Assembly (NCBI GenBank): GCA_019637695.1
Contig: JAHBVG010000006.1
Location: 29,227 to 93,226 of the forward strand
Length of the DNA stretch: 64,000 bases
Source: Caldilineaceae bacterium
GTDB lineage: Bacteria; Chloroflexota; Anaerolineae; Caldilineales; Caldilineaceae
Reading direction: 5' to 3'
How positions within the stretch are numbered: the first letter of the stretch is position 1; each line of letters begins with the position of its first letter. The position numbers and the translations under genes were made by a program. A model generated the notes under the pieces. That model had not been told where the DNA came from and made no database searches. It saw only the letters and a list, made by a program, of their open reading frames with translations. This document shows, piece after piece, positions 10,032 to 47,096 of this stretch.

Positions 10032-10904
10032 ATGCATAGTCAATTTCTGCACTTGCCAGTCGAATCCACAAGTTTCAAGGAATCGATCCCCTATATGGGG
10101 AAACGGGCAAAACTTCTCTTGCATTATCGATTCTTGATCTACAATCTGGTAATGCGAGATCTCAAGGCGCGCTATCGAAATAGCGTCTTGGGGTTCCTGT
10201 GGAGTTTGCTGAACCCGCTTGGGATGATGGTGGTTTTCACAGTTGTAGCAACGGTACTTTTCCGAGATCAGACAATTGAGAATTATCCAATTTTCCTGTT
10301 AGCGGGGATCTTGCCGTGGAACTTTTTCACGGCAAGCGTCATGACGGGTACAAATAGTGTGGTCTCAAATGGTCACCTAATTAAAAAAATCTATTTTCCG
10401 ACTGAAGTTCTGCCCATATCGGCAATTTTGGCAAATCTCGTCAATTTTTTGTTGGCGCTAACCGTCCTCTTTGCTGCGATTATAGTGTTGCGTGTTCCTT
10501 TCAGCCCCTGGCTTTGGCTGCTTCCCGTTGTGATCCTCATTCACACGCTCTTTGCACTGGGTGTTGTTTTCTTCTTGAGTACATTGCAGGTTTATTATCA
10601 TGACACCCTTATTGTGATGGACGTTGTCCTGTTGGCCTGGTTTTTCCTGACGCCGGTTTTTTATTCAGCCAGTATGTTACCAGTCTCTTACACTGTTTGG
10701 GGCATCACGCTTGATGTACGGCGTCTTTTCTATATTCTTAACCCAATGGCTTCACTGATTAATATGTATCGGGATCTGCTCTACGGTGGAACTCGAACGG
10801 ATCTTGACTTTTTTCTGAGAACTGCGGTCACCGCGGTGATTGTATTCCTTGCGGGGTACTGGTTCTTCATTCGATACAGCGGCAATTTTAGCGAAGAGGT
10901 ATGA
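10032..10904 (+). CDS. wzm: ABC-2 type polysaccharide export permease (Wzm/TagG-like)
   Basis: 'LIYNLVMRDLKARYRNSVLGFLWSLLNPL' is the hallmark ABC-2 N-terminal motif. Six hydrophobic segments. The start could instead be the ATG at 10095. Confidence 0.85.
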   Translation: MHSQFLHLPVESTSFKESIPYMGKRAKLLLHYRFLIYNLVMRDLKARYRNSVLGFLWSLLNPLGMMVVFTVVATVLFRDQTIENYPIFLLAGILPWNFFTASVMTGTNSVVSNGHLIKKIYFPTEVLPISAILANLVNFLLALTVLFAAIIVLRVPFSPWLWLLPVVILIHTLFALGVVFFLSTLQVYYHDTLIVMDVVLLAWFFLTPVFYSASMLPVSYTVWGITLDVRRLFYILNPMASLINMYRDLLYGGTRTDLDFFLRTAVTAVIVFLAGYWFFIRYSGNFSEEV

Positions 10905-15484: not shown

Positions 15485-15631
15485 TGATATCTGAACAATG
15501 AATGCAAAGATAATCAATGGAGTATCTGAAGGAAGCCCGTAAAACAGGAAGTTGACATCTATGCATAAATGTATGCGTCAGTGTTTACCTATGTACCGGG
15601 CAATTATCTGAATAAAGGCAATATCTGTAGT

Positions 15632-16966
15632 ATGAGTACAACCACTCAACTTCACTCTGGCGACTGTTATAATCCATTGATCGATGTGATCGATGTATCA
15701 AAACGATTCCGGCTTCAGCGTGAGCGGCGGCGTTCGATCCAGGATACGTTCATTCACTTATGGAAACGACAGTGGGCGCACGGTGAATATTTCTGGCCGC
15801 TGCGGAATATATCACTACGTATTTGTCCTGGCGATAGTGTAGGCATTTTAGGACAAAATGGATCTGGAAAGAGTACCCTGCTCAAGGTAATTACAGGTGT
15901 ATTGCCCCCCACCACAGGACAGGTCCGCATCAATGGGCGAATTGCATCTCTGCTCGAACTTGGTGCAGGCTTTCATCCTGACCTGACCGGGCGCGAAAAC
16001 GTATTCCTGAATGGTTCAATCTATGGCATGAGTAAGGAGACCATTCAGAATAGATTGGATCAGATCATTGACTTCGCCGAAATCGGTGACTTTATCGACA
16101 CACCGGTAAAAAATTATTCCTCAGGCATGTATGTGCGGCTTGGATTTTCGGTCGCGGTCCATACATCACCGGAAATCTTGATCATTGATGAGGTACTCAC
16201 GGTTGGCGATCAGATCTTCCAACAGAAGTGTATGCAGCGTATCTTGGAAATGAAAGCGGCTGGCATTGCTATCCTTCTGGTTTCACATAACGCAGAGGAT
16301 ATTCGCCGACTCTGTGATAGAGCCATATGGCTGCACAACAGTGAAGTCCGTGCGGATGGCCCCGCCTTTGACACCGTCGATGAGTATCTTACTTATACTA
16401 ACGATCTCTATTACGCAAGACGTCGTGCTGAACAGACGCCTGCATCTGAACAGACGACAACTGCAGAGGATACACAACCCATACCCCAACTGGAAACTCG
16501 ACGTTGGGGAACATTTCAAGCTGAAATTGTGCGCGTCGAACTACGCAATGAAGACGGTGTGGAAGTAGACCAATTTCGCCCAGGTTCCATGTTGCGGATT
16601 TACATCTACTATAAGACCCACATGCGCATCGATCGTCCAACCTTTGGACTGGCTATCTACCGACAAGATGGATCTCACATCAATGGACCAAATTCAGTCG
16701 ATGAAGGATATCATCTGGATGCCATTGATGGGACAGGGGTTATGGAATATCGAATTGATGAATTGCCACTCAATCCTGGTCACTATGAACTGACGGTCGC
16801 TATCTATAACCAAAACTCTACAGTGGCATACGATCATCATCACCGCATGTATCCTTTTGAAGTAAGGTCGCTGCGCGGCAAAGGTGAGGAAGGTGTCGTG
16901 CATATTCCAGCCACGTGGCGCCACGTAACGGCTGAGGCAATCAACCTTCACACTAAGACCACATGA
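15632..16966 (+). CDS. wzt: polysaccharide ABC exporter ATP-binding protein (Wzt/TagH-like) with a C-terminal Wzt_C-like beta-sandwich extension
   Basis: Walker A '[10 protein letters not shown]', signature '[11 protein letters not shown]', Walker B 'ILIIDEVL'. A further 150 aa or so ('[18 protein letters not shown]...[11 protein letters not shown]') resembles the glycan-cap-binding domain of Wzt. The ATG at 15632 is preferred; the ORF opens at 15569. Confidence 0.85.
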
Positions 16967-19646: not shown

Positions 19647-20357
19647 ATGTTCCAGAGTATTCGCAGAATCTTCAGGGGCGTCAAAGCACCGTCTGCCTCC
19701 CAAAACCAAATGATTCGGAGCCAGCAGGCCAACCTTGTTCCCTTTGACGTGACGGCGTTTGCCGGTGAGTTTGAGCTGGGCTGGCTGGAGCCGGTCAAGA
19801 GCGCTCCAGTCTGGATGTCGCGCTCTGAACGTTTGATGATGTTCAGCCTAGCTTTTTGTTTACGCCCTCAGCGTTATCTGGAGATCGGCACATTTCAAGG
19901 TGGTTCCGCTCTTGTGGTCGGCAGTGCGTTGGATGCGCTGAAGAGCAATGGGCAAATGTACCTGGTTGACCCGACACCCAAAATCGCACAAGAAGATTGG
20001 TTGAAGATCGCCCATCGCGCTGAGTTGTTCAAAGGGTATTCGCCGGACATCTTGCGCAAGGTGGCTGCCAAAGCTGTGCAGCCGTTCGACCTGGTGCTGA
20101 TCGACGGCGATCACACTTACGCAGGGGCGAAACGTGATGCTGAAGGTGTGCTTGCATACGTAGGGCCGGGTAGCTACATTGTATTTCATGATAGCTTCTT
20201 CCCAGAGGTTCGTCGGGCGATCGACGAGTTCGTCGACGCGCATTCCGGGCGCATTGTTGACTTTGGGTTGATGACGCGCGAGGTAACCGTCGACAAAAGC
20301 GAAGATGGGGGCAGAGTTGAGTGGGGCGGTCTGCGGATATTGTATATTCCGGCCTGA
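19647..20357 (+). CDS. class I SAM-dependent methyltransferase (Methyltransf_24 / O-methyltransferase family 3-like)
   Basis: 'YLEIGTFQGGSALVVGSAL' (motif I), 'FDLVLIDGDHTYAGAKRDAE', 'GSYIVFHD'. Confidence 0.8.
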   Translation: MFQSIRRIFRGVKAPSASQNQMIRSQQANLVPFDVTAFAGEFELGWLEPVKSAPVWMSRSERLMMFSLAFCLRPQRYLEIGTFQGGSALVVGSALDALKSNGQMYLVDPTPKIAQEDWLKIAHRAELFKGYSPDILRKVAAKAVQPFDLVLIDGDHTYAGAKRDAEGVLAYVGPGSYIVFHDSFFPEVRRAIDEFVDAHSGRIVDFGLMTREVTVDKSEDGGRVEWGGLRILYIPA

Positions 20358-21020: not shown

Positions 21021-21872
21021 ATGGGACTGTTTCATACACTCAGCAACGTATTCAAGAGAAGGACTATCTGGCGTCAACATGAACCGTGGCAAAGCATTTC
21101 GCCAGAGCCTGAGATCGAGCCGTCGAATCCACCTGATAGAGAGTCCTTGATTGCGCTGGTCAACTCATTTCCGTACTGGTATCAGCGCATATACCTGGGC
21201 CAGGGCGTCTACACCCTGCCCGTAGTGCAACTTCACAACTACGTCTGGCAGACGATTAAAACAATGCTGCCAGACGGCTTCAAGGGTGCCTCGATTCTTG
21301 ATGTCGGAACAAATGCAGGATACTTTTGCATCCAGGCCAAACTAAATGGTGCGGCCCAGGTGGTCGGTGTCGATTTTGAGGACAGGTATCTGAAGCAGGC
21401 CGAAACCTGTCGATCCATCTGGAAGCTCGATATTGATTATCGACAGACCGACATAGACCAGCTTCAACTCCATACGATGGGACAACGCTTCGATCTCGTG
21501 ATCTTCACAGGCATTTTATACCATTTGAAGAATCCGCTCGGGGTGTTGGAGCAGATGGCTAGCCTGTGCAATGACGCCATAGTTGTCGAGACTGAAGTGA
21601 TTTCACCTAGACACAGAAACGTCCTCCATGTGCGACAGGGGCCTCTTGGACGCTCAGTTGTCACGCCAAGCCACACAGGCTTCATGAAATTTATCGAAAA
21701 ATATGAGCTGAACGGCGATGGCTCGAACTGGTGGGTTCCAGATGAAGAATGCGTGCTGGGCATGTTGCGTACAGCAGGTTTCAAATATTTCTCACAACCT
21801 CACTACTTCGGAGAGACACGTATGCTGGTGGTGGCCACTCAGCAACCGCAATCCATCCTTCAAATTGCGTGA
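21021..21872 (+). CDS. class I SAM-dependent methyltransferase (DUF1698 / CmoB-like subfamily)
   Basis: 'YWYQRIYLGQGVYT', 'ILDVGTNAGYFCIQAKLNGAAQVVGVD', 'FDLVIFTGILYHLKNP', 'GSNWWVP'. Confidence 0.8.
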   Translation: MGLFHTLSNVFKRRTIWRQHEPWQSISPEPEIEPSNPPDRESLIALVNSFPYWYQRIYLGQGVYTLPVVQLHNYVWQTIKTMLPDGFKGASILDVGTNAGYFCIQAKLNGAAQVVGVDFEDRYLKQAETCRSIWKLDIDYRQTDIDQLQLHTMGQRFDLVIFTGILYHLKNPLGVLEQMASLCNDAIVVETEVISPRHRNVLHVRQGPLGRSVVTPSHTGFMKFIEKYELNGDGSNWWVPDEECVLGMLRTAGFKYFSQPHYFGETRMLVVATQQPQSILQIA

Positions 21873-27040: not shown

Positions 27041-27050
27041 TGTTTTTTGT

Positions 27051-28646: not shown

Positions 28647-30957
28647 TGGGCATTCATCTCCTCTGACCTTTTCCATTGTGGTCAACACAACAGACCGCTC
28701 CCACTCCCTCTCCATCTTGCTCAGGAGCTTGGAGCAGCAGTCTTACCCTCATTTTGAAGTGGTTGTGGTGGTTGGCCCCACCAAAGATGATACGTTGGAG
28801 ATGTTGAGCCGCTACCAGGGCCGACTCCAGGTGTTGCGATGCGATGAAGCCAACCTGAGCAAATCCCGCAACATTGGTCTGCGCGCTGCCCACGGTGATG
28901 TGGTGGCTTTTATCGACGACGACGCCGTGCCCTGTCAGCGCTGGCTGGAGCAGTTGAACCAGATCTTTACCGATCCAGCCGTGGACGCTACCGGCGGCGT
29001 GGTCTATCTGATCCACCCCAATTCGCCCTCGATTCAACACCGGCTGGGCATCACCTCCTCCTTAATGGAGCAGTACTATGCCCGCAAATCGGGATTGGAG
29101 TACCTGGTTCCTCCAGGTCAGGGGCGCCAGTGGTTCACCCGCATGATGGGTACCAACATGGCCTTCCGTCGTCAGGCTATCCTGAATGTAGGGGGCTTTG
29201 ACGAATTCTACATCTGGGTGACTGATGAGACGGATCTGGTGATGCGTATGGTCAACGCTGGTCATCTCATTCACCCAGTTAAAGAGGCGGCTGTCTATCA
29301 TGTACCCGCCTCCAGCCGTAATCGAGTGGTCAGGACCAATATCGGCCGCTGGTGGGTACAGACCCAATCCGCCATCTATTATACCATCCGCAATAACCGG
29401 GATCGGCGCGAAAACGGCCGTGCTGCCGCCATGACAGCCCTTCATCTGATCAACGGCCACTGGCTATGGTACACCCAGATGTGGCGGAATGGGGAGATCT
29501 CTCTAAGACAGATGTTGTGGAAATCGGGGGAAGAAGTCTGGGCCGGCGCGGATGCCCTTACCCGCGCCACCTTCCACCCTCGTCGCCTGATCCCCACTGC
29601 TGAAATTCAAACGCTCCAAAACCGCCATGAACCCATTCTGCCCTTTCCCCGTGAGTATTCCCGCCGACAGGGCAGCGTGGACCCAATCCAGGGACGACAG
29701 CCTGTGATCACCATGCCTGAGCAGCCTTTGCGCCTCTGCCTTACCAGCGGCCTCTACCCACCGGAACGCTTCGACGGAATTGGCCGCCACACCAACGCAA
29801 TGGCTAAGGGCCTCTTTGAACTGGGCCACACTGTCCATGTCATCACCCGATCGGAGCGAGAAGAGGTCACCTTTTACGATGGCGCCTTTGTCCATAAAAT
29901 TCCCTATCGGTTAGATCGTTACCCTCTTTATAGCCACCTGCCGGATCTGCACCACTCCCTCAATTACAGCCATGCCCTGCACGAAAAGGTGAAGCAGCTG
30001 ATTTTGAACGATGGGATTCAGATAGTAGACTCTCCTCTGTGGCAGATGGAGGCCCTGGTCACCGCGGTGAGCGATCTGCTGCCCGTGGTGGTACGGTTGC
30101 AGACCAGTGTGCGTAAAGTCACCGATATCCAGCGGGATCAGGATGAGGGCAAGCGGCTCATCGGCGAGATGGAACGGGCGCTGCTGGAGCGGGCAGCCTA
30201 TCTTGTCCCTAATTCCCAGGCGGTCATCCAGATGGTGCGGCAACTCTACGTTGACACCCAGGACAAACCCTATCAGATCATTCCCCACGGCATTGAGCCA
30301 GTCGAAGAGGAATGGGTCTCGCCCTTCCCCCTGGAGCGGCCCCCCGCCCAGTTGAGCGTACTCTATGTAGGGCGATTGGAGCGGCGCAAGGGCATTCAGG
30401 CCCTCTTTCAAGCCATTCCCGCAGTTTTGGACAAAGCGCCCAATACCTTTTTCCTCATCGCCGGTCAGGACAACAGCCAACATGACGGCTTTCAGAGGCG
30501 TACGGGCTACACATACCCCGACTTCTTCGCGACCAGATATCCCCGCTTAAAGGATCGGGTGAAGTTTCTAGGAGAGGTGAGCGATAAGGAGAAGAACGAA
30601 CTCTACCGTACCTGCGATCTCTTTGTGGCCCCTTCTCTCTACGAATCTTTTGGGCTGATTTATCTGGAGGCCATGAATTACGCCAAACCTGTGATCGGTT
30701 GCCGGGCTGGCGGCATTCCAGAGGTGGTGGATGATGGGGTCAACGGCTTGCTAGTAGAGCCGGACGCAGCCCCGCCCCTGGCCGAAGCGATTGTGTCTCT
30801 GCTCAACGCGCCGATGCGGCTCCACGATATGGGTTTAGCAGGCCGACAACGTCTGTTGGAGCGCTTTACATATCTTCAAATGGCGAAAGGCTTTGAAGCT
30901 GTCTACCGGCAGGCGATTGTCCACCATCAAGCATCCGTACAAGTCCGTGCAAACTGA
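28633..30957 (+). CDS. bifunctional glycosyltransferase: N-terminal GT2 module fused to a C-terminal GT4 module
   Basis: GT2: 'FSIVVNTTDRSHSL', 'VAFIDDDAVPCQRWL'. GT4: 'LRLCLTSGLYPPERFDGIGRHT' ... 'APSLYESFGLIYLEAMNYAKPVIGCRAGGIPEVV'. Confidence 0.85.
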   Translation: MMNVNGHSSPLTFSIVVNTTDRSHSLSILLRSLEQQSYPHFEVVVVVGPTKDDTLEMLSRYQGRLQVLRCDEANLSKSRNIGLRAAHGDVVAFIDDDAVPCQRWLEQLNQIFTDPAVDATGGVVYLIHPNSPSIQHRLGITSSLMEQYYARKSGLEYLVPPGQGRQWFTRMMGTNMAFRRQAILNVGGFDEFYIWVTDETDLVMRMVNAGHLIHPVKEAAVYHVPASSRNRVVRTNIGRWWVQTQSAIYYTIRNNRDRRENGRAAAMTALHLINGHWLWYTQMWRNGEISLRQMLWKSGEEVWAGADALTRATFHPRRLIPTAEIQTLQNRHEPILPFPREYSRRQGSVDPIQGRQPVITMPEQPLRLCLTSGLYPPERFDGIGRHTNAMAKGLFELGHTVHVITRSEREEVTFYDGAFVHKIPYRLDRYPLYSHLPDLHHSLNYSHALHEKVKQLILNDGIQIVDSPLWQMEALVTAVSDLLPVVVRLQTSVRKVTDIQRDQDEGKRLIGEMERALLERAAYLVPNSQAVIQMVRQLYVDTQDKPYQIIPHGIEPVEEEWVSPFPLERPPAQLSVLYVGRLERRKGIQALFQAIPAVLDKAPNTFFLIAGQDNSQHDGFQRRTGYTYPDFFATRYPRLKDRVKFLGEVSDKEKNELYRTCDLFVAPSLYESFGLIYLEAMNYAKPVIGCRAGGIPEVVDDGVNGLLVEPDAAPPLAEAIVSLLNAPMRLHDMGLAGRQRLLERFTYLQMAKGFEAVYRQAIVHHQASVQVRAN

Positions 30958-30966
30958 GGTGTCAAA

Positions 30967-31701
30967 ATGAAGTCGAACATTGATCCCCAGGACATTCTCC
31001 GGGACATTGAGTTTGAACTGCTCCAGGGGGCTATTCGCCAGGATGAGTTGGGACAGAGTTTGCAGGCTGTGCGCAAATTCCACAGCAACCTGCGCACAGA
31101 ACTGCTGGCCGTGGCTGGTGATACGCTCCAGGGCAGGGAGATCATCACCCGCCAGACTCAATTCAATGATATGCTCTTGAGTCTACTGCAAGAGATGTCC
31201 AGCGATCTGTTGCGCCTGGAACAACAACAGCGTGACCTGGGCCTCTGGCTCCCCAACCACGCTGCGTTGGACTTGGAACCATGCGCCCAGAATGATAGGG
31301 AAGAGAGTCAACCTTCAACCTTGCCAAAGGACACAACAGACACCCTGCCTGAGGAATGGCTGGCCCTGGCGCGTTCCCCGTCCTCTGCTGCTGTGGGCAA
31401 TCCGCTTCTAATGCCTGCGGCAGACCAAAAGGAGGTGGAGCAGGCCATGCAGGCGGAGGCGCTGAGCGTACCAATCCACGTGCGCGGTGCCAACATTCCC
31501 GTCATTGGGGCCATCCTACACAAGATGCGCCGGACGCTGCACAATCTGGTCTATTACTACGTGAATCAGCTTGCCGGGCGGCAGGTACAGGTGAACCAAA
31601 CCTTCGGCGCTGCCCTGCTACGCCTGATGGCGCAGAACGCAGAGCAACAGCAAGAAATTGAGCGTTTGCGCAGCGAGCTAGCTAATAACGGGAAGCAATG
31701 A
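30967..31701 (+). CDS. hypothetical coiled-coil protein sharing a C-terminal motif with the GT2 at 38333
   Basis: 244 aa with no enzymatic motif. The C-terminus reads 'PVIGAILHKMRRTLHNLVYYYVNQLAGRQVQVNQTF...QQQEIERLRSELA'. Confidence 0.5.
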   Translation: MKSNIDPQDILRDIEFELLQGAIRQDELGQSLQAVRKFHSNLRTELLAVAGDTLQGREIITRQTQFNDMLLSLLQEMSSDLLRLEQQQRDLGLWLPNHAALDLEPCAQNDREESQPSTLPKDTTDTLPEEWLALARSPSSAAVGNPLLMPAADQKEVEQAMQAEALSVPIHVRGANIPVIGAILHKMRRTLHNLVYYYVNQLAGRQVQVNQTFGAALLRLMAQNAEQQQEIERLRSELANNGKQ

Positions 31702-33115: not shown

Positions 33116-34386
33116 GCGACGATCCGCAACTGCGCGTTCTTCATCTTGTCCATCAATATCCGCCAGACTATCTGGGCGGCACAGAACTCTATACCCAAAC
33201 CGTGGCCAAAGCGCTCAGCGCACGCGATTATCCCGTCGCCGTCTTCACCCGGCGCAATGCGGATGGGGTCGGCAGCGAGGATCGTCTGGAGGCGGATGTA
33301 GCCGTCCACATGGCCTGGAATGGATCGCTCACCCCCACCCAACGCTTCCTTTCCACCTTTGGCAACGCCGATCTAGAGCAGGCATTCGGCGGCATCCTCG
33401 AACGCTTTCAGCCTGAATTGATCCATATTCAACATCTGATGGGGTTGCCGATCACCCTCCTCAAACAGATCCGGCGACGGCGCATCCCCTTTGTGGTGAC
33501 GCTCCACGATTTTTGGTGGGTGTGCGCCAACGCGCAGTTGATCACCAATTACAGCGGCGAAATCTGCGATGGCCCCAATTTGTGGATCAACTGCGCGCGA
33601 TGCGCTCTGGCGCGCAGTGGACGCAGCGCGCTCTGGCCGGCCATTCCTCTGCTGGCGGGGATGTTAGCTCGACGCGATACAGTACTCGGCGCCATTCTGC
33701 GAGAGGCCGCCCAATTGATCGCCCCTTCCCACTTTGTCAAAGATTGGTACACAAATCACGGCATCCCAGGTGACCGCATTCAAGTGCTGCCACATGGGAT
33801 CGATCTGCCTGCGCTGCCATCGCTGCGCGCCTCGCACGCCAGACCACGCCTTTTGTACGCGGGTGGTCTGGCCTGGCAAAAGGGTGTCCACGTGTTGATG
33901 GAAGCCTTAGCGGGGATGAATGGAAGCTGTGAACTCTGGATCGCAGGCGACGAAGCCTTTGATCCTGAGTATAGTCGCCGGTTGCGCGCCATTGCCCACG
34001 GATACCCCGACAGCCAGATCTCATTTTTGGGCAAGCTGTCGCGCCAGGATCTCTGGCAAACGTTGACCCGCGTGGACGCTGTCGTGGTCCCGGCGCTCTG
34101 GTACGAAACATTTTCGCTCATCATCCACGAAGCATTTGCCGCCGGGGTACCCGTGATCGCCTCCAATCTAGGCGCGCTGGCCGAAGCCGTCCATCACGAA
34201 GTGGATGGCCTCTTGGTGGAGGCTGGCTCAACCAGGGCATGGCGGCAGACACTCCAACGGCTGATCGATGACCCCACACTGCTAGGGAAGCTACGCCAAC
34301 AGGTGCGTCCACCGTTGGGGGTAGACGAACATATTGCGCGCCTGCAGCGCATCTACACCGAGGTTATCCGCTCGCATGGACAGTAA
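33112..34386 (+). CDS. glycosyltransferase family 4 with a 4-Cys insertion
   Basis: The ATG at 33112 overlaps the upstream stop (ATGA). 'LRVLHLVHQYPPDYLGGTELYT', 'WWVCANAQL...CDGPNLWINCARC', 'VVPALWYETFSLIIHEAFAAGVPVIAS'. Confidence 0.85.
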   Translation: MSDDPQLRVLHLVHQYPPDYLGGTELYTQTVAKALSARDYPVAVFTRRNADGVGSEDRLEADVAVHMAWNGSLTPTQRFLSTFGNADLEQAFGGILERFQPELIHIQHLMGLPITLLKQIRRRRIPFVVTLHDFWWVCANAQLITNYSGEICDGPNLWINCARCALARSGRSALWPAIPLLAGMLARRDTVLGAILREAAQLIAPSHFVKDWYTNHGIPGDRIQVLPHGIDLPALPSLRASHARPRLLYAGGLAWQKGVHVLMEALAGMNGSCELWIAGDEAFDPEYSRRLRAIAHGYPDSQISFLGKLSRQDLWQTLTRVDAVVVPALWYETFSLIIHEAFAAGVPVIASNLGALAEAVHHEVDGLLVEAGSTRAWRQTLQRLIDDPTLLGKLRQQVRPPLGVDEHIARLQRIYTEVIRSHGQ

Positions 34387-37291
34387 CCCCATGTCCGGCA
34401 AACCACCTTCCCCGGCGCTATCTGCCCCCAAAGCTGCGATAGCAGCGTTGCGCGCCGCCCTGCCTCGTTGGAGCCATCTTGAGCGCCCTGTTTTGTTGAT
34501 CATCGGCGATCCTCAGCGTCCAGAGGTCCAGATCCTCGGGCAATCGCTCAGCGCGGACGCCACCGTGATCACGGCGGGTCCTCGTAATCTGCCCGACGAT
34601 CCCACATGGGATCTATGCCTCTGCCTGGATCTACCCGAAGAGGCGCATAGGGGTGAATTCATTGAGAAGTTGGCGCAGCGTTGCGAGCGTCTTCTCTTTG
34701 CGCCACCCTGCCTCATGGCCGACCCGATCCGTCAGGCGGCAGAGTTGCGCGATTGGCTGGGTCTCCTCGCCGAAGCGGGCCTGATCTACGACATTGACGG
34801 CGAGGCATTGCTCTCGCCGAGCGAGGGATTTCTCTTGCGGCGCGCTCAACTCCCTGCGACTGAGGCGTTGGGCTACCTCACCCTGGCGCTACACGAACAG
34901 ACAGCGCGGCTCGACCGCCAGCGCAACATCTCCCTTGCCCAGGACGATCAACTGATCGCGCTGACCCGGCTCAGCCTTGCGCTGGACAAGCAGATCGCGC
35001 AGGCCATGCAACAGCGTGCGCGCCTTGACCAGGCATGGGATGAAGTGAGCGGCAATTGGTCACAATTGGAACAAAGCCCGGGTTATATCCTCTTGAAACG
35101 AGTTCAGCTCGCCCGCGCCAGGGTTGCGCCCCCAGGCAGCCGGCGCGAACAGTTGCTTGAGATGGGCATCGGCTGGGCGCGCATCCTCAACCGACGCGGC
35201 CTGCGCGGACTCGTCAACCACCTGCACGGGGAAATCGGCTGGCGCACCCATTCGTTCACCGCTCGCTTTGATCGTCGCCGTCACTACCATATTGAAACAG
35301 TTGAAATTCCACTCGTCCAACCTCGGCCTGAGATCAACGCCCATCAGTCGCCCGTCGATATTGTGATCTGCGTCCACAACGCGCTGGCGGATCTCCAGCG
35401 CTGTCTGGCTTCTGTCATCGAGCAGACCGCACAACCCTACGCGCTGATCCTGGTGGACGATGGCAGTGACGATCCCACCCGCGCTTATCTGGCCGAATTC
35501 GCCCGTAGCCATCCCGCTGCAACACTTCTCCGCAACGAAACGGCCATCGGTTACACGCGCGCCGCCAACCAGGGGATGCGTCACAGTCGCGCTGATTTTG
35601 TGCTGTTGCTCAACAGCGACACGCGGGTTACGCCGGGCTGGCTGGATCGGTTGGTCGCCTGCGCTGAATCCGATCCTGAGATCGGGATCGTGGGGCCGCT
35701 TTCCAATACAGCTTCCTGGCAGTCGATACCCGACATCGCCCTGGGGGCGGATTGGGCTGAGAATCCACTGCCCACCGGTATGGATCTGAATGGATGGGCT
35801 ACCCAATTGGCGGCAGGATCAGCGCGGCTCTACCCGTCCATGCCGCTGCTCAACGGCTTCTGTCTGCTGATCCGCCGGGCGTTGATCGACGAGATCGGCT
35901 TCTTTGATGAGCAGATCTTCGGCGCAGGCTACGGTGAGGAGAACGATTACGCGCTGCGCGCCCGCGCCGCCAGTTGGAAGTTGGCGCTGGCCGACGATAC
36001 CTATATCTACCATGCTCAGTCGCGCAGTTACTCGCATGAACGACGCAAACAGTTGAGCGTTCAGGCCGCGACAGCGTTGACGGCCAAACATGGGACAACG
36101 GTGATCGAAACGAGCGTTGATATCTGTCGCGAAGCCCCGATTCTGGAGGGGATCCGCGCTCGCGCGGCGGCTCTGCCAGATCGCGCACGGACGCTCGCCC
36201 AGGGGCGCAATCGTTTCGCAGGGCGGCGCGTACTCTTCCTCCTTCCCGTGGACAGCCCTGGCGGCGGGGCCAACGTTGTAATTGCCGAAAGCCGGGCCAT
36301 GCAAGCCATGGGGGTAGAGGTCGCCGTTTTCAATCAGAGAGAAAAACAGCCGGATTTCGAGAAGAGCTACCCCACTCTGGGGATTCCTGTGTACTATGGC
36401 GAACCAACCGATCTGGCTGCGCTGGCCGCCGGATACGACGCGGTGATCGCCACATGGTATACAACCGTCGCATGGATGCAGCCTCTCTCGGCGCGGCGGT
36501 CGCCCCCTGTGTTGGGCTATTATATTCAGGATTTCGAGCCTTACTTCTTTGCGCCCGAAAGCGTCGAGCGCCAGTTGGCGTTGCAAAGTTATACGGCCAT
36601 CCCTCATCTGCGTCTGTTCACCAAAACGACGTGGAACCAACAAGAAGTCTCAAGTCAGGTCGGCGTACAACCTGCGCTGGTTGGCCCTTCTGTCGAAATC
36701 GACCGCTTCCGTCCCCGGCGGCTCGATCCACTCTCCTATGTTGAACGCCCGCTCCGGGTAACGGCGATGGTGCGCCCCAGTTCACCCCATCGCGCGCCAG
36801 ATTTAACAATGCGCCTCTTGCGTCGCCTTTCGCATCGCTACGGTGACGATGTCGAGATCACAGTTTTTGGGGTAAAACCCAACGACCCTGCCCTGGCAAC
36901 CCTGCCCCAAGATTTTCACTGGCAGTTGGCGGGCATCCTTGAACCGGATCGGGTGGCGACCTTGTTGGCGCAGGCCGACATCTTCGCTGATTTTTCCACT
37001 TATCAGGCCATGGGGCTGACAGCCTTAGAGGCGATGGCATCGGGCGCGGCGGTGATTGTTCCACAAAAGGGAGGCGCTATCTCTTTTGTCCGCCCGGATA
37101 CAAACGCGCTGATGGCAGATACCGCCTCCGAGGCGGCCTGCTGGGCCGCGCTGGTGCGCCTGATGGAAGATGATGATCTACGCCGCTGGCTGCGCCAACG
37201 AGCCATCTACGACGCCTGCCGATTTCACCCAGAGCGCGCCGCCTATCAACTCTTAAACATACTCTTTCCTGCACCCGGAGAGCAACGATGA
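34376..37291 (+). CDS. multidomain protein: N-terminal methyltransferase-like (degenerate) domain, coiled coil, GT2 module, GT4-like GT-B module
   Basis: ATG at 34376 (MDSNP...). 'LLIIGDPQ...WDLCLCLDLPEEAHRGEFIEKLAQRCERLLFAPP' resembles class I MTase motifs but lacks GxGxG. A Q/R/L-rich helical stretch runs about aa 165-235. GT2: 'VDIVICVHNALADLQRCL...LILVDDGSDD...LLLNSDTRV'. GT-B: 'RVLFLLPVDSPGGGANVV...'. Confidence 0.8.
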   Translation: MDSNPMSGKPPSPALSAPKAAIAALRAALPRWSHLERPVLLIIGDPQRPEVQILGQSLSADATVITAGPRNLPDDPTWDLCLCLDLPEEAHRGEFIEKLAQRCERLLFAPPCLMADPIRQAAELRDWLGLLAEAGLIYDIDGEALLSPSEGFLLRRAQLPATEALGYLTLALHEQTARLDRQRNISLAQDDQLIALTRLSLALDKQIAQAMQQRARLDQAWDEVSGNWSQLEQSPGYILLKRVQLARARVAPPGSRREQLLEMGIGWARILNRRGLRGLVNHLHGEIGWRTHSFTARFDRRRHYHIETVEIPLVQPRPEINAHQSPVDIVICVHNALADLQRCLASVIEQTAQPYALILVDDGSDDPTRAYLAEFARSHPAATLLRNETAIGYTRAANQGMRHSRADFVLLLNSDTRVTPGWLDRLVACAESDPEIGIVGPLSNTASWQSIPDIALGADWAENPLPTGMDLNGWATQLAAGSARLYPSMPLLNGFCLLIRRALIDEIGFFDEQIFGAGYGEENDYALRARAASWKLALADDTYIYHAQSRSYSHERRKQLSVQAATALTAKHGTTVIETSVDICREAPILEGIRARAAALPDRARTLAQGRNRFAGRRVLFLLPVDSPGGGANVVIAESRAMQAMGVEVAVFNQREKQPDFEKSYPTLGIPVYYGEPTDLAALAAGYDAVIATWYTTVAWMQPLSARRSPPVLGYYIQDFEPYFFAPESVERQLALQSYTAIPHLRLFTKTTWNQQEVSSQVGVQPALVGPSVEIDRFRPRRLDPLSYVERPLRVTAMVRPSSPHRAPDLTMRLLRRLSHRYGDDVEITVFGVKPNDPALATLPQDFHWQLAGILEPDRVATLLAQADIFADFSTYQAMGLTALEAMASGAAVIVPQKGGAISFVRPDTNALMADTASEAACWAALVRLMEDDDLRRWLRQRAIYDACRFHPERAAYQLLNILFPAPGEQR

Positions 37292-38340
37292 AGCGCCGCG
37301 TCCTGCTTCTCTACGAATACAGTGTCGTTGGGCTACCTCATAGCAGCGCCTACCTGCGCCTGCTACGTCCATTTACCCACCCCGCCCTTCGAGAACGATA
37401 CGATACCACGCCCTCGCCGCTTTACAGAGGAGAACAGACTGAGATCGTCATTGTGGATCGCACCTGGCGCCCCGATGTCAGCGGCGATCTGGCGCTGGAG
37501 TTGACGGAATCCGTCGCGCAGAGTGGAGCAAAGCTGCTCTATCAACTCGACGATGATCTCCTCAGCCTGCCCATTACGGCATCCTATACCGCAGCCCAGC
37601 GTGAGGCGGTACATGTCTTTGCTCGTAAAGCCGATGCGCTGCTGGTTTCGACACCGCTCCTGGCCGAACGCATGGCCCCGCTGAATCAGCACATTTCAAT
37701 TGTCCCCAACGCATTGGATGAACGTCTGCTCGTCGCGCCACGGTGCCGCCATGCGCTCCCCTTCCCCGCGGATGGGATCACCATCGGCTATATGGGAACG
37801 CGCACCCACGACGCCGATCTACGCATGATTTTGCCCGCATTGCATCAGTTTGGGCGTCTCTCTCCTCACCCGGTGGAACTGCAAATTGTCGGTGTTGCCC
37901 TGGAATCCGAAACCTGGGCCATGCTTGCATCGTTGCCCTTTCCGGCGCGGCGGATTGACCCGCCGACAACCGAATATCCACAGTTTCTCACCTGGTTCAC
38001 TGGCGCCCTCCACTGGGATATTGCACTGGCTCCATTGGTGGATACGCCTTTCAACCGCGCCAAATCTGATGTCAAGTTCTTGGATTACAGCGCGCTGGGC
38101 GCGGCGGGGATCTACAGCCGCGAACCCGTCTACGGAAGGTCAGTGGAGCATGGCGTGACCGGCTGGCTGGCCGACGCTACCACCGAAAGCTGGACCGAAG
38201 CGCTGGTGACGCTGGCGATACAGCCCGATCTACGCCGGGAACTCGCCGCCAATGCCCACCGCCATTTGAACGAGGCGCGCATCTTGGCCCATCGCCATCC
38301 CGATTGGATCGCTGCACTGGAGGCGGCCTACTATGGCTGA
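37288..38340 (+). CDS. putative GT-B fold glycosyltransferase (divergent)
   Basis: The ATG overlaps the upstream stop. 'RVLLLYEYSVVGLPHSSAYLR', 'ITIGYMGTRTHDADLRMILPAL', 'KFLDYSALGAAGIYS'. No canonical EX7E motif, so the assignment is tentative. Confidence 0.45.
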   Translation: MKRRVLLLYEYSVVGLPHSSAYLRLLRPFTHPALRERYDTTPSPLYRGEQTEIVIVDRTWRPDVSGDLALELTESVAQSGAKLLYQLDDDLLSLPITASYTAAQREAVHVFARKADALLVSTPLLAERMAPLNQHISIVPNALDERLLVAPRCRHALPFPADGITIGYMGTRTHDADLRMILPALHQFGRLSPHPVELQIVGVALESETWAMLASLPFPARRIDPPTTEYPQFLTWFTGALHWDIALAPLVDTPFNRAKSDVKFLDYSALGAAGIYSREPVYGRSVEHGVTGWLADATTESWTEALVTLAIQPDLRRELAANAHRHLNEARILAHRHPDWIAALEAAYYG

Positions 38341-39584: not shown

Positions 39585-40958
39585 ATGCGAATTCTATTCG
39601 TTATCCCTGCTTACACTCCCTTTGTGGGCGGCGCTCAGACATTTGTGCGCGCCATGGCCTGTCGCCTCATTGAGGATGGTCATACAGTGACAGTGCTTAC
39701 CACAACCGCTCAATGCGCGGACGACTACTGGCGTCCGTCATGCAGGGAACCATTGCCATTACACGAGCGGATCGACGGTGTAGATCTGGTGCGGTTACCC
39801 ATCCGCTATCCCTGGCCTGCGCCCTATCACTTTGGTCTGTTGCGGCGGGCCGGGCACTGGTTACAGCGTAGCGCCCTGCCCGATCCAATCCAGCAGCCAC
39901 TCTTAGGCTATTTCGCTCGTTCTATGCCGCCTTTGATCGATCTACAATCGACAACAGAGCGTCTTGTGGCTGAAGCCGATCTGGTACACGCCATCGACGC
40001 CACCTGGGATGGTCCTTTCACGGCGGCGAGTGGGGCGGCGCACAGCGCAGGGAAACCCTTTGTGGCGATGCCGCTTATCCACACGGGCAGCGCTCACATC
40101 CTGGCCCATGCCACCATGTCTCACCAGCGGACGGTCTACTACCAGGCGGAGGCTGTGATTGCGTTGACCGCTCGTGAAAAAGATCTGTTAGCAGAGCAGG
40201 GCGTTGCCAGGGATCAGATCCACGTCCTCTCGATGGGGGTCGAGCGAGAAGATGGCGGAGAGATCCCAACGCTCTCGGCCCGGTGGCGGCAACAAACCGG
40301 GGTGCGCGATCCGTTTGTCCTCTTTTTGGGGGCGGCGACCTATGACAAAGGAGCCTTCACGCTGGCGCGTACAGTGGTGGATCTACACCATCGGGGGATC
40401 GAGATTGGGGTGGTCTGCGCCGGTCCCCAACAGCAGCAATTGCAGCGCTTCATCGACACACAACCCGATCCCGACCGGCGACTGCTCACGGAACGGGTCC
40501 GCCTGCTGGGGATTGTGGATAAGCTGACCAAACGTTCGCTCCTTTCCGCATGTGTAGCCCTGGCGCTGCCCAGCCGCGTCGATTCCTTTGGGATCGTTTT
40601 ATTGGAAGCGTGGACGCATGGCAAGCCGGTTGTGGCCGCGGCTGAAGGTGGATTAAGTGAGATCGTCGCGCAGGATGAGACAGGTCTGCTTGTCCCTTTC
40701 GACGATGTGTCATCCCTGAGCGCTGCCATCACCTGCCTGCTCCAAAATCCGGTGCTGGCAAAGCGGTTGGGCGAAGAGGGACGTGACCGTGTGCGCTCTC
40801 GCTATACCTGGGATCATACTTATGCAGCCTTATCACATCTTTACACACAAATCGACCGTCCAGGATTCATCCACGCTGTCGAATCTTCAACCGCCAACGG
40901 CCTATCACCCGCCACGGCTCCCCTCAGCGGATGGAAAAGAGACGGTCGTCGTGGATAG
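39585..40958 (+). CDS. glycosyltransferase family 4
   Basis: 'MRILFVIPAYTPFVGGAQTF' ... 'LPSRVDSFGIVLLEAWTHGKPVVAAAEGGLSEIV'. Confidence 0.85.
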   Translation: MRILFVIPAYTPFVGGAQTFVRAMACRLIEDGHTVTVLTTTAQCADDYWRPSCREPLPLHERIDGVDLVRLPIRYPWPAPYHFGLLRRAGHWLQRSALPDPIQQPLLGYFARSMPPLIDLQSTTERLVAEADLVHAIDATWDGPFTAASGAAHSAGKPFVAMPLIHTGSAHILAHATMSHQRTVYYQAEAVIALTAREKDLLAEQGVARDQIHVLSMGVEREDGGEIPTLSARWRQQTGVRDPFVLFLGAATYDKGAFTLARTVVDLHHRGIEIGVVCAGPQQQQLQRFIDTQPDPDRRLLTERVRLLGIVDKLTKRSLLSACVALALPSRVDSFGIVLLEAWTHGKPVVAAAEGGLSEIVAQDETGLLVPFDDVSSLSAAITCLLQNPVLAKRLGEEGRDRVRSRYTWDHTYAALSHLYTQIDRPGFIHAVESSTANGLSPATAPLSGWKRDGRRG

Positions 40959-42309
40959 AAACGGCTATAACCTTGCCCCCAATCGGCGCGCCTTTGCGGA
41001 TAGATCCCACCCTCGGCGGATAGCGCCTGCGCCACAAACGCTCAGGCGGATCGCCTTTGTTGTGCATAAATTTCCGCCCGAAAGTCTAGGCGGTACGGAA
41101 CTCTACTGCTGGAGTCTGGCGCGCACATTGGCCCAGGCCGGACACGAGATCCACATTTTCTACCCCACGCCCCAACTGCTCCCCGGTGAGGAAAAGGTCG
41201 AGCGCGAAGGGGTTCATCTCTGGCGTGTGCCCTTGCCCGATAGCCGCCTTTACGAGAATCCGGTCAGCCAGTATTGGCATACCTTCCGCGATCTGAGCAT
41301 GGAGGCTGCGTTCCAACGCTTTTTGGCCGAAGTGGATCCGCAACTTGTCCATTTTCAGCATGTGCAAGGCGTTTCGGCGCGGTTGATCGAACTGGCTGCC
41401 CCGCGCACGCACATTGTGACCTTGCACGATTATTGGTTTTTTTGCGCCAACAGCCAGTTGATCCGCCCGGATCACCGCCCCTGTGATGGACCTTCGGCGG
41501 GCTGCCGCAATTGTGTAGACTGCGCGACTGAGCGCGCCGATCTCCAGTGGATGAAATCATTACGGCCTTTGGTCGCGCTCCCCTTTGCATATCGAAATCA
41601 TTATCTGCGCAAGTTGGCCGACGAAGTGGATCTCTTTATTGCCCCCAGTGATTTTCTGCGCGACCAATACATCCGCCACGGCTTCCCAGCGGATCGCATT
41701 GTCGTCATCGAAAATGGGTTGGATGAGAGCAAACTTACCCTTTCGGCGTTGCCGCCATTGCCCGAACCATCGGCGCGTCCTCATTTTGGATTTTTAGGAT
41801 CGCTGGCCTGGCAAAAAGGCGTCCACATTTTGATCGAAGCCTTCAATCAGGTAGACGAAGATGCTTCTCTGACCATCTATGGCAGTGAGCGGCTCTTCCC
41901 CGATTATGTGGCGCAACTCAAGGCGCTGGCGCGGCATCCGCATATTCGTTTTGCCGGTCTCTTGCCGCCGCAACAGGTGGGGGCAGCGCTCCGCCAGATG
42001 GACTGTCTGGTGGTCCCCTCGCTCTGGTACGAAAATTCTCCCCTCGTCATCCAGGAAGCCTACGGCGTCGGCGTGCCTGTGGTAGCCAGCCGTCTGGGCG
42101 CCATGCCCGAAAAGGTGCAGGATGGCCGCGCCGGTCGCCTCTTTGAGGCGGGGAACGTAGCCGATTTGACCGGCGTTCTGCGCGATCTCGTGGCCCATCC
42201 TCACGCCCTGGCCCAAATGGCTGAACAGATTGTTCCTGCGCCCGGTATGGCCGAACACGCGGATCACCTGCTTTCAATCTATGAAGGGCTGATCGAGGGC
42301 AGAAAGTAA
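40951..42309 (+). CDS. glycosyltransferase family 4 with a 4-Cys insertion (paralogue of 33112..34386)
   Basis: 'IAFVVHKFPPESLGGTELYC', 'YWFFCANSQL...CDGPSAGCRNCVDC', 'VVPSLWYENSPLVIQEAYGVGVPVVAS'. The start is uncertain. The GTG at 40951 overlaps the upstream stop; the ORF opens at 40783 inside the previous gene. Confidence 0.8.
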   Translation: MDRNGYNLAPNRRAFADRSHPRRIAPAPQTLRRIAFVVHKFPPESLGGTELYCWSLARTLAQAGHEIHIFYPTPQLLPGEEKVEREGVHLWRVPLPDSRLYENPVSQYWHTFRDLSMEAAFQRFLAEVDPQLVHFQHVQGVSARLIELAAPRTHIVTLHDYWFFCANSQLIRPDHRPCDGPSAGCRNCVDCATERADLQWMKSLRPLVALPFAYRNHYLRKLADEVDLFIAPSDFLRDQYIRHGFPADRIVVIENGLDESKLTLSALPPLPEPSARPHFGFLGSLAWQKGVHILIEAFNQVDEDASLTIYGSERLFPDYVAQLKALARHPHIRFAGLLPPQQVGAALRQMDCLVVPSLWYENSPLVIQEAYGVGVPVVASRLGAMPEKVQDGRAGRLFEAGNVADLTGVLRDLVAHPHALAQMAEQIVPAPGMAEHADHLLSIYEGLIEGRK

Positions 42310-45641: not shown

Positions 45642-47096
45642 TCAAAACCTGTCATCGTTGTAATAGTTATCAAGCTTATCCTTTATTTGATTCTTGCTTC
45701 CTCGATATCCAGGCAAATCCAAAATCTCCTTTCTGCAACGCTGTTTATCATTTATTCTTGAGGATAGCCACGGCTCTAGCTTATGTTCAGGAATTTTGGA
45801 TGTGATTACAGTTGGCAATGAACATTCAAAGCGGTAATTAAGCAATTGGAAAAGTTTCTCTCTCGCCCATGGTGTAGCGCTTTCCATACCAAGATCGTCT
45901 AAAACCAAGAAAGGAATATTCTTAATTTCTTCAAAACGCATATCGTACGCGACAGGTGACGAAGGATTGAACGTAGACTTGAGATAATCTAAAAATTCAG
46001 CTACCCCAACAAAAAGCACATCTGAGGAGCTTTCCTCTGCCCAATGATTAGCAATGGCAGCGGCCAGGTGTGTTTTGCCAACTCCTTCAATTCCCAACAT
46101 GACAAACCACCCTAAAGGTTTTTCTGCATACTGCATAGCACTCCGCTTTACACGTCTGAGCGTACTCAATTCATCAGCTTTCAGATTCTGCAGTTTGTCT
46201 CGGAAATTATCGAATGTCTTGTCAGTCAGAATCCTCAGCATGCTGAGATCAATTTCTGATGGAGTAGAGCCATAACGATAATCAGGTAATCGCAATTCAA
46301 TCTTCTTTACCAATTTCATATCCATGAGACGACTGCGAAGCCTTTGATCAATATCTTCGAGCCGCTGATTACTTGTAACTACTGTGGGTAGTTGAGAATT
46401 GTATCGGGCGTTAAAGAGTTGAAAAAGCTTTTCCTGCGCCCACGCAGTCGAACTTTGCGTACCCAAATCATCTACAATTAACAATTCAGTAGTACGCAAA
46501 TGTTGGAAAACATTATCATAGGACACAGACATTTCGGGGTTGAACGCTGAACGAAGATGATCCAAAAGATCAGGAGCCACTATAAAAGTTGCAGGCTTCC
46601 CACTCGCAAAACGCTTATTTGCTATTGCTGCGGCTAAATGCGTTTTCCCAACACCATAGCTGCCAAGAATTAGAAGCCACCCCTCTGGATTGTTCGCAAA
46701 ATTCTGACATGTTGATAACGCCTTGGATAATTTTTCACGTTTTTCGAGAGACATATCTGGTATATCTACAACGAAACTTTCGAAGGTGTAACCTGCAATA
46801 TCTTGAACACCGTTCATATTTCTCAACTGGTATAGTTTTTTCAGCCGCATTTCCTCTTTTTTACAGTCACAGGGAAGCGCCTTCCCAAATTGAGGGTGAC
46901 CTAAAGGAACATCAAGCATGACATAACCCGTACCCTTACATTTAGGACATTCTCTGGGCTCCCCAAACTCTGACGATGAATAACTCGTTTGAGAATCCTT
47001 ATGAATATTTTGATGTTCTCTGATATTCCAATACTTACTCTGCGGAGAAGAATTCTCTACGCCGCTTCTCCTCAGAATACTGTCCAGATCCTCCAT
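45642..47096 (-). CDS. DnaC/DnaI-type helicase-loader-like protein with an N-terminal 4-Cys ribbon and two tandem AAA+ modules
   Basis: '[10 protein letters not shown]...LPCDC'. Module 1: 'YTFESF', '[16 protein letters not shown]', 'LLIVDDLG', 'TVVTSN', 'RLRSRL'. Module 2, exactly 190 aa later: 'KTFDNF', '[16 protein letters not shown]', 'FLVLDDLG', 'TVITSK', 'WLSSRI'. Confidence 0.8.

Follow-up and report, generated by a model that had tools for sequence, protein, structure and literature searches.

A putative ruler-polymerase with a degenerate methyltransferase domain in a glycan gene cluster of a Caldilineaceae bacterium

To our knowledge, coiled-coil rulers are the only well-understood length control for bacterial surface glycans exported by ATP-binding cassette (ABC) transporters. 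A terminator at the distal end of a coiled-coil protein is the hallmark of this assembly strategy (PMC11231755). WbbB of the O12 system, an experimentally shown molecular ruler, holds all functions in one polypeptide, and ORF6 of Klebsiella pneumoniae O7 has an N-terminal methyltransferase (MT), a kinase and a carbohydrate-binding module (CBM), followed by a coiled coil and two GT2 glycosyltransferase (GT) modules (PMC11231755). Orthologues of ORF6 occur in alpha- and gammaproteobacteria and in cyanobacteria, and the strategy is widespread across bacteria (PMC11231755). WsaE from a Firmicute combines an N-terminal capping MT with two GT domains, and its gene lies right after wzm-wzt (PMC2943079). 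The characterised examples named in these two papers all have an active terminator at the coil tip, and the C-terminal CBM of Wzt reads the chain-terminating cap in characterised systems (PMC11231755, PMC2943079). Here, we analysed a stretch of 64,000 nucleotides from a Caldilineaceae bacterium of the phylum Chloroflexota (assembly GCA_019637695.1, contig JAHBVG010000006.1, positions 29,227 to 93,226), hereafter the window. A gene at 34376..37291 (+ strand) in the window, the target of this study, encodes a degenerate methyltransferase (pseudo-MT) domain, a coiled coil, a basic helical region, a GT2 module and a GT4 module in succession, as judged from the open reading frame (ORF), Pfam matches and a full-length AlphaFold2 model.

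We consider it fairly probable that this protein belongs to a lineage of ruler-polymerases with a pseudo-terminator: it would be the chain-extending enzyme of an ABC-transporter-dependent surface glycan pathway, in which a dead MT domain has been kept and capping takes place in trans. We know of no characterised envelope-glycan pathway in Chloroflexota, having made no literature search for one.

The N-terminal domain and its family

The N-terminal domain (N-domain, aa 1–155, 34391..34855, +) is a degenerate class I MT fold according to its alignment with the intact MTs of homologues, the AlphaFold2 model and substitution rates. Class I S-adenosylmethionine (SAM)-dependent MTs have a seven-stranded Rossmann-like fold, a Gly-rich motif I (E/DxGxGxG) after strand β1, and an acidic residue at the end of β2 that binds ribose. 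In a joint alignment, the N-domain of the target aligns column by column with Pfam-positive MT domains of its homologues, and both sequence hallmarks, motif I and the acidic β2 residue, are missing from it. Motif I, which is VLDVGCAMGFLVEAL in intact relatives, has become LLIIGDPQRPEVQIL in the target with one glycine (G39) left; over the motif I region, the target has LLIIGDPQRPEV and the intact relatives have VLDVGCAMGFLV. The position of the Gly-rich loop is occupied by 'GDPQRP', the 'AFGVDIS' loop with the acidic ribose-binding residue after β2 has no counterpart, and about 18 residues corresponding to helix B and strand β3 are absent. Modelled alone, the domain has a predicted local distance difference test (pLDDT) score of 90.3 and six strands instead of seven.

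Residues 1–325 had no Pfam match even at E ≤ 10, and an NCBIfam scan of the protein yielded only generic GT matches far under the cut-offs. The top Foldseek matches of the N-domain in the PDB were mostly class I SAM-MTs and were weak (best E = 2.6e-3, template modelling (TM) score 0.35–0.5), with nothing at E ≤ 1e-3. Family assignment by N-domain-only sequence and structure searches (Pfam, Foldseek) is not significant, and the origin of the domain is recognised because it aligns with the homologues, not through such searches. This alignment to intact homologues demonstrates, at the level of sequence, that the N-domain descends from an MT. The intact N-domain of one homologue, P0034, matches UbiG (E = 9e-7) and the O-antigen terminator WbdD (4uw0, 4azw and 4azs; E = 6e-5 to 1e-4, aa 37–175) in a PDB search, and the ancestral domain, as read from the sequences, is a WbdD-like MT of the terminator type.

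A still-active N-domain, either an MT or another transferase with an unconventional cofactor site, would make the protein a complete terminator-ruler-polymerase in cis. The retained Rossmann-like fold, the prevalence of SAM-MTs among the top structural matches, the conservation of G39 and of the 'DL.LC' strand, and the presence of a Wzt with a cap-reading CBM all fit such an enzyme. However, 'GDPQRP' in place of the Gly-rich loop, the missing acidic residue after β2, the loss of about 18 residues, the empty Pfam (E ≤ 10) and Foldseek (E ≤ 1e-3) searches, and a divergence far faster than that of intact domains make it very improbable. Because a domain without a SAM site cannot serve as the terminator, the target is at most a ruler-polymerase with a pseudo-terminator, and capping probably happens in trans.

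The reading frame is open without interruption from 34334 to 37291 (+), as seen in the ORF list and the translation. The ATG at 34376, giving 971 residues, is the likely start, since the resulting N-terminus 'MDSNPMSGKPP' is common to the 83%-identical homologue P0002. The alternative ATG at 34391 gives 966 residues and corresponds to the public gene call P0001, an identical protein whose numbering is used throughout. An initial annotation of this DNA, made from the letters alone, had left room for the N-terminal region being merely an extension of the upstream gene; this is not the case, as the GT4 gene before it is read in another frame and ends at 34386. The full-length AlphaFold2 model, built on 85 homologues, has a mean pLDDT of 89.5 and a predicted TM score of 0.73, and consists of a β/α N-domain (aa 34–151), a long helix (156–227), two further helices (230–245 and 251–293), a GT-A part and a GT-B part. 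The string that the annotation had quoted from its MT-like core, WDLCLCLDLPEEAHRGEFIEKLAQRCERLLFAPP, opening WDLCLCLDLPEE, corresponds to aa 73–106 (nt 34607–34708). Its description of a core of about 150 residues without the SAM loop agrees with the domain of about 155 residues whose motif I is replaced, and its suggestion of a degenerate MT fold is borne out by the alignment with intact homologues and the motif loss. The word "giant" was an overstatement for 971 residues in a cluster that also encodes proteins of 774–912 residues.

A homologue search returned 1480 proteins at E ≤ 1e-10. The closest relatives come from metagenome-assembled genomes (MAGs) of Caldilineae and other Chloroflexota; they are 50–83% identical, have the same architecture and likewise lack a Pfam MT match. 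The next tier, about 45–50% identical and 970–1050 residues long, has an N-terminal Methyltransf_23/25/11/12 domain by Pfam, followed by GT2 and GT4. Of the 120 best homologues, MT motifs are intact in about 58–63, the N-domain is degenerate in about 30, and 22 lack it. Degenerate members are found in several lineages outside the clade of the target, and the decay of the MT is therefore independent and repeated. Where the GT modules are 55–65% identical, N-domain identity is 20% in the degenerate clade vs 58% in the intact group, which indicates that the constraint typical of an enzyme has been lost; in the degenerate clade, N-domains diverge at about three times the rate of intact MT domains.

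The loss of constraint is partial. We calculated the ratio of nonsynonymous to synonymous substitution rates (dN/dS) by the Nei–Gojobori method for the window gene and three relatives (L087, L088 and L089). The values are 0.22–0.31 for the N-domain, 0.15–0.29 for the coiled coil, 0.12–0.14 for GT2 and 0.07–0.16 for GT4. The N-domain is thus relaxed about twofold and clearly under purifying selection. This selection, together with the predicted folding and the preserved size, is what characterises a pseudoenzyme that still has a structural or binding function, as opposed to a remnant in decay.

Among the 120 best, the matches with a named source are all from Chloroflexota, the one exception being a Sulfuricella protein whose architecture differs. 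In a representative set with one genome per species, which excludes the genome of the window, the top representatives are Ca. Fredericiella danica (58%, class Caldilineae) and a Caldilineaceae MAG (56%). A separate exhaustive search of representatives with residues 1–300 gave 13 matches at E ≤ 1e-3, a weak guide to abundance because the family collapses at 50% clustering. In the scan of one genome per species, the coil together with the 'SPGY...APPGSRRE' region behind it was found in Chloroflexota loci only, and the GT2–GT4 core, with various other N- and C-terminal additions, occurs in many phyla (Chloroflexota, Cyanobacteria, Nitrosomonas, Pseudomonas, Polyangia, Acidobacteria, Planctomycetota and Firmicutes).

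Coiled coil, basic region and glycosyltransferase modules

An extended coiled coil lies between the terminator-type domain and the polymerase part of the target. It is a continuous helix of 72 residues (aa 156–227, 34856..35071, +), which we read as a heptad coiled coil from the AlphaFold2 model, the hydrophobicity spectrum and the linker lengths in the family. Q, R, L and A account for 56% of its residues, and it contains zero proline and two glycines. The hydrophobicity spectrum of the target helix has its maximum at a period of exactly 3.5 and not 3.6 residues (p = 0.027 vs shuffles). The mean spectrum of 116 family linkers peaks at 3.5 as well (28.4, vs 10.6 for shuffles and 11.2 at period 3.6), and the averaged profile of the target's clade has a sharper 3.5 peak with a power of 48. 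The phase of this component is constant along the entire helix, which indicates one unbroken heptad register.

Linker lengths tell the same story across the family. We measured them from the end of the N-domain ('RFRR') to the conserved 'W..LE.SPGW/Y' motif in 90 proteins, which are related to each other. In 60 of these, the linker has 50, 57, 64, 71, 78, 85, 92, 99, 106, 120 or 155 residues; these lengths are congruent to 1 modulo 7 and represent 11 of the 30 different values observed. Owing to the relatedness of the proteins, a binomial p-value exaggerates the significance, but across the different values the pattern is clear. The coil thus spans 50–155 residues, mostly in heptad increments, and long members contain tandem 7- or 14-residue repeats, e.g., four copies of AEKEQALQALRAQA. 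Length variation in heptad steps is what a ruler-like coil predicts, and the pattern is compatible with, but not proof of, a ruler. The segment after the helix has 99–101 residues (70–74 in one subgroup) whatever the length of the helix. Given a helix of such variable length next to a segment of constant size, an intramolecular helical hairpin is unlikely; an intermolecular supercoiled coil is the natural reading. At a rise of about 1.5 Å per residue, the helix is estimated to be about 107 Å (about 10 nm) long.

These lengths also bear on whether the coil serves only for oligomerisation or as a scaffold, with the dead domain a leftover nearing deletion and chain length set elsewhere or not at all. 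We regard this as the less probable explanation, yet one to be taken seriously. Some relatives have lost the whole N-domain and kept a helix of 53–76 residues, and with 56–58% identity in the GT part they are closer to the target than the intact-MT group is; moreover, the N-domain evolves at about three times the rate of intact MT domains, and several MT motif degenerations in the family are independent. On the other hand, a dN/dS of about 0.25 means that the amino acid sequence of the dead domain is under selection, and the model predicts a confident fold for it (pLDDT 90). Domain size and the linker of 71 residues are constant down to about 50% identity, where a neutral remnant would be expected to gain indels: of the 15 members of the degenerate clade that were measured, 13 have a linker of exactly 71 residues, as does the N-terminally partial P0008, and the remaining two have 62 and 67.

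Behind the coil, residues 228–300 (35072..35290, +) comprise the motif 'W..LE.SPGY...APPGSRRE' and basic amphipathic helices, defined by conservation, a hidden Markov model (HMM) and the hydrophobic moment. R242, P247, S250 and R252 are invariant or near-invariant in the family, and matches of the HMM for this region are restricted to Chloroflexota loci. The hydrophobic moment reaches 0.49, the net charge is +5, and the pLDDT is lower here (60–73). This region is a candidate for membrane association or docking.

The GT2 module of GT-A fold (aa 320–560, 35348..36070, +) matches PF00535 (E = 4e-26, aa 327–559) and PF13641 (E = 2e-16). It contains the motifs DDGSDD (aa 356–361, nt 35456–35473), NSD and GEENDY, and the columns of D356, D357, N408, S409, D410, E516, E517 and D519 are invariant. 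Foldseek matches of the GT-A part include ppGalNAc-transferases and heparosan synthase, to which a sequence-profile search of the PDB adds chondroitin synthase. The GT4-type GT-B module (aa 612–958, 36224..37264, +) matches PF13692 (Glyco_trans_1_4) and PF00534 (Glycos_transf_1) over approximately aa 628–945 with E-values of about 1e-12 to 2e-11, and its Foldseek matches in the PDB are MshA, PimA, HepE and BshA (TM score 0.7–0.76, normalised to the target). Immediately downstream, a divergent GT-B (GT4-like) partner of 350 residues is encoded at 37288..38340 (+). Its start overlaps the stop of the target, an arrangement that marks the two genes as translationally coupled, and an orthologue of about 350 residues, its start likewise overlapping the stop of the family gene, stands immediately downstream in every locus examined (L001, L003–L006 and L087–L093). 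Its GT4-like nature was established by a profile and a Pfam scan of nine orthologues. The GT2 and GT4 modules with their catalytic-type motifs and the coupled GT-B would suit a polymerising enzyme, polymerisation and the addition of a single sugar being indistinguishable from sequence. The helical stretch of about 70–80 residues rich in Q, R, L and A that the initial annotation had noted is this single 72-residue helix of the model; the coiled coil it had postulated is supported by the 3.5-residue period, the constant phase and the heptad-quantised lengths, and its GT2 module with DDGSDD followed by a GT-B module was found again with Pfam and Foldseek.

The glycan cluster and candidate capping enzymes

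The target is one of many GT genes in a glycan cluster at about 5.2–45.6 kb of the window, in which the genes from 5257 to 45562 are all on one strand. The same cluster encodes a glycan exporter: Wzm, the ABC-2 permease (10032..10904, +; Pfam ABC2_membrane, E = 2e-14), and the Wzt ATPase with a C-terminal CBM (15569..16966, +; ABC_tran, E = 2e-21; Wzt_C, E = 5e-29, aa 310–445). By sequence, the window thus holds both an exporter and the Wzt_C module associated with the described systems. Wzm and Wzt, normally an adjacent pair, are 4.6 kb apart with other genes between them, and a Wzx-like flippase (5257–6831) occurs in the same cluster.

Two stand-alone MTs of the cluster are candidates for capping in trans. 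The first (19647..20357, +) is Methyltransf_24/CmcI-like, resembling rhamnosyl O-MTs (PF13578, E = 7e-19; PF04989, E = 9e-8), and has an intact glycine loop, 'YLEIGTFQGGS'. The second (21021..21872, +) is a class I SAM-MT (Methyltransf_23/9 by Pfam) with motif I 'ILDVGTNAGYF' and the acidic loop 'VVGVDFE'; it is not close kin of the family N-domain MT. We also considered domain fission, with the stand-alone MTs (in the window and in L004 and L006) as the detached N-domain; BLASTP gave only generic class I similarity (E ≥ 5e-4) to these non-orthologous proteins, and the idea was rejected. A detached terminator in the short subfamily was rejected as well: P0017, which has no N-domain, is preceded by a coupled ORF of 443 residues, and this encodes a multi-pass membrane protein. 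Nor does the window hold a second copy of the family with an intact MT, as the family MT and 'mid' HMMs match no other ORF in it. The GT2+GT4 protein of 774 residues (28633–30957) is only a distant relative (52 bits, vs 1089 for the target).

Related loci were compared with that of the target. In the intact-MT loci L001 and L006, the family gene lies directly behind a Wzt with Wzt_C, and in L092 a tandem pair of family genes does so. In the fourth of the four intact-MT loci examined, wzm/wzt is about 8 kb upstream and Wzt lacks Wzt_C. The locus of the closest relative (L087, 83%) encodes MT23, MT21, an FG-GAP protein, Wzt, GT4, GT4, the homologue, the 350-residue protein and GT2 in this order, so that a Wzt with Wzt_C stands two genes before the homologue. 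Stand-alone MTs lie within about 13 kb in five of the six degenerate-domain loci; among the four intact loci, one has a stand-alone MT and one an MT-bearing family paralogue. This association, from very few loci, is at most suggestive.

We propose the following scheme. The GT2 and GT4 modules, probably with the coupled 350-residue GT-B, would assemble the repeat unit on the cytoplasmic side of the membrane, with a lipid as its carrier. In the ancestral family, the N-terminal SAM-MT would cap and thereby terminate the chain, and a parallel coiled coil would fix the distance between the capping domain and the polymerase, the same design as in WbdD/WbdA, WbbB, K. pneumoniae O7 ORF6 and WsaE. In the clade of the target, SAM binding would have been lost, with the folded domain and the 71-residue linker retained by selection. 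The coil may still oligomerise the enzyme in parallel and project the dead domain an estimated 10 nm from the GT modules, while the basic amphipathic helices at aa 251–293 may contact the membrane or a partner. The dead domain could act without catalysis, as a platform to which either a separate capping enzyme or the end of the chain binds. A stand-alone MT of the cluster would add the cap, which the CBM of Wzt would read for export.

Several observations weigh against this scheme. A sister group of 800–850 residues has the coiled coil with the N-domain wholly absent, and because it retains the coil, the coil has a role that needs no terminator in cis, e.g., plain oligomerisation. In one degenerate-domain locus, no stand-alone MT was seen within 10 kb, and the stand-alone MTs are neither orthologous between loci nor related to the lost domain. 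In the window, the target is 17 kb from Wzt, and the cluster also contains the Wzx-like flippase and other large GTs, so the target may serve a glycan other than that of Wzm/Wzt.

The last point raises the question of whether the target works outside the Wzm/Wzt pathway of its cluster, in a Wzx/Wzy-type or other pathway, e.g., decorating a different polymer, with its architecture an ancestral relic. Many unrelated genes lie in the 17 kb between target and Wzt, a Wzx-like flippase is encoded at 5257–6831, and relatives L003, L005 and L090 have no Wzt within 10 kb. Nevertheless, the closest relative (83%) has Wzt, GT4, GT4 and the homologue in one contiguous block, the window genes from 5257 to 45562 share one strand, and no Wzy-type polymerase was detected in the window; we think there is little chance that this explanation holds. 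Within the favoured reading of a pseudo-terminator ruler-polymerase, a more tentative possibility is that the pseudoenzyme tip is itself functional, as a chain-end sensor or a dock for a stand-alone capping enzyme. The protein would then be part of a two-component ruler, with one protein measuring the distance and another catalysing, and the repeated, independent MT decay in this Chloroflexota family would mark a recurrent route from termination in cis to termination in trans.

Other features of the window and of related loci are recorded here. A GT2 of 567 residues (26943–28646) has a C-terminal tail of about 270 residues that is helical and coiled-coil-looking, and an ORF of 244 residues (30967–31701) without a Pfam match is helical and coiled-coil-like; there may be a second coiled-coil assembly (ruler or terminator?) around the GT2+GT4 protein at 28633–30957. 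The tandem paralogues of L092 (6857–12994) both have the MT/coil/GT2/GT4 order and follow Wzm-Wzt; the first has strong MT matches and the second (P0047) weak ones, with 'DAACASG' as motif I, and the pair could be a snapshot of terminator decay after duplication. In L091 (148–9956), the intact-MT member P0079 comes directly after rmlC/B/A/D-like genes for deoxythymidine diphosphate (dTDP)-rhamnose, a hint that the product may be a rhamnan, as it is for WsaE; the 262-residue Wzt encoded there lacks Wzt_C. A PMT_2/GT-C-type membrane glycosyltransferase of 885 residues (16963–19620) overlaps the stop codon of Wzt, and two multi-pass membrane proteins without Pfam match are encoded at 13865–15484 (539 residues) and 22094–24832 (912 residues). 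These three could be extra-membrane glycan transferases or ligases, which bears on the destination of the polymer in a host without lipopolysaccharide.

The ORFs at 12262–12933 and 13050–13760 match aa 902–992 and 1047–1259 of one 1267-residue protein of L001 and are probably a broken or frameshifted glycoside-hydrolase-like gene. A secreted protein of 724 residues (24866–27040), without Pfam match, has glycine-containing repeats typical of a right-handed β-helix (pectate-lyase-like), and β-helix proteins flank the L001 cluster too. As listed, the GT4 ORFs 39585–40958 and 40783–42309 share 175 nt, and translation of the second probably starts further downstream; the overlapping pair recurs in L003, L004, L088 and L090. 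Beyond the cluster, the DnaB replicative helicase gene (47906–50557, −) is split by an intein with a LAGLIDADG homing endonuclease, and it is adjoined by DnaD-like (DnaB_2) and IstB/DnaC-like loader genes (47035–47763, −, and 45642–47096, −).

Comparison with described assembly systems

O7 ORF6 resembles the target in being a single polypeptide with an N-terminal terminator region of MT type, a central coiled coil and two C-terminal GT modules, and both come with a further stand-alone GT and an ABC-transporter-dependent pathway. It differs in its length of at least 1414 residues, its active MT, the kinase and CBM-like domain before the coil, and its two GT2 modules; compared with ORF6 as described, the target has no kinase or CBM, its GT modules are GT2 and GT4, and its MT is degenerate. 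WsaE, from the S-layer glycan system of Geobacillus stearothermophilus NRS 2004/3a, likewise has an N-terminal MT region and two GT domains in a non-proteobacterial host. Its gene directly follows wzm-wzt with overlapping codons, like the family genes in the intact-MT loci L001, L006 and L092, and is followed by a separate partner GT, WsaF, as the target is by its own partner. Matches to WsaF_C (PF22772) were found in family member P0055 and in a separate GT of 1052 residues upstream in L088. In contrast to the target, the O-MT of WsaE, compared here by description, is active and caps the chain, and a coiled-coil ruler is not described in PMC2943079.

WbdD, the terminator and ruler that works with the polymerase WbdA in Escherichia coli O8/O9a and K. 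pneumoniae O3/O5, has an MT homologous to the intact MTs of the family, a coiled coil behind the catalytic domain, and a cap that is read by the Wzt CBM. It is separate from the polymerase, carries a kinase in O9a and has its membrane anchor C-terminal to the coil, whereas the target has a dead MT and carries its polymerase modules on the same chain, behind the coil. WbbB (K. pneumoniae O12/Raoultella terrigena) shares the single polypeptide with a terminator, a coiled coil and two polymerising GT modules. Its terminator is a β-linked 3-deoxy-D-manno-oct-2-ulosonic acid (Kdo) glycosyltransferase and not an MT fold, and the likeness is one of design, not of N-terminal descent. The term "WbbB-like" in the initial annotation therefore does not hold by descent, and of its terminator-ruler-polymerase architecture, the domain order and the homology to the WbdD-related MT family stand, while the terminator part does not, the protein's own MT having no SAM site.

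By sequence, an active terminator domain is present in about half of the family (at least 58 of the 120 best matches) and absent from the target. A conserved pseudoenzyme terminator on a conserved coil is not described in PMC11231755 or PMC2943079. The family therefore offers a natural experiment, with an intact, a degenerate but selected, or a deleted terminator on the same coil-polymerase chassis and with coil lengths in heptad steps. It makes two questions testable: what the coil does without a terminator of its own, and whether termination is supplied in trans. Our analysis also documents this assembly design as common in Chloroflexota. The initial annotation had considered it unusual outside Proteobacteria, a view at odds with these Chloroflexota relatives, with WsaE in a Firmicute and with the cyanobacterial orthologues of ORF6 (PMC11231755, PMC2943079). 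O7 ORF6, WsaE and a fusion of WbdD with WbdA are closer analogues of the target than WbbB (PMC11231755, PMC2943079), and its general design is one already known, also outside Proteobacteria.

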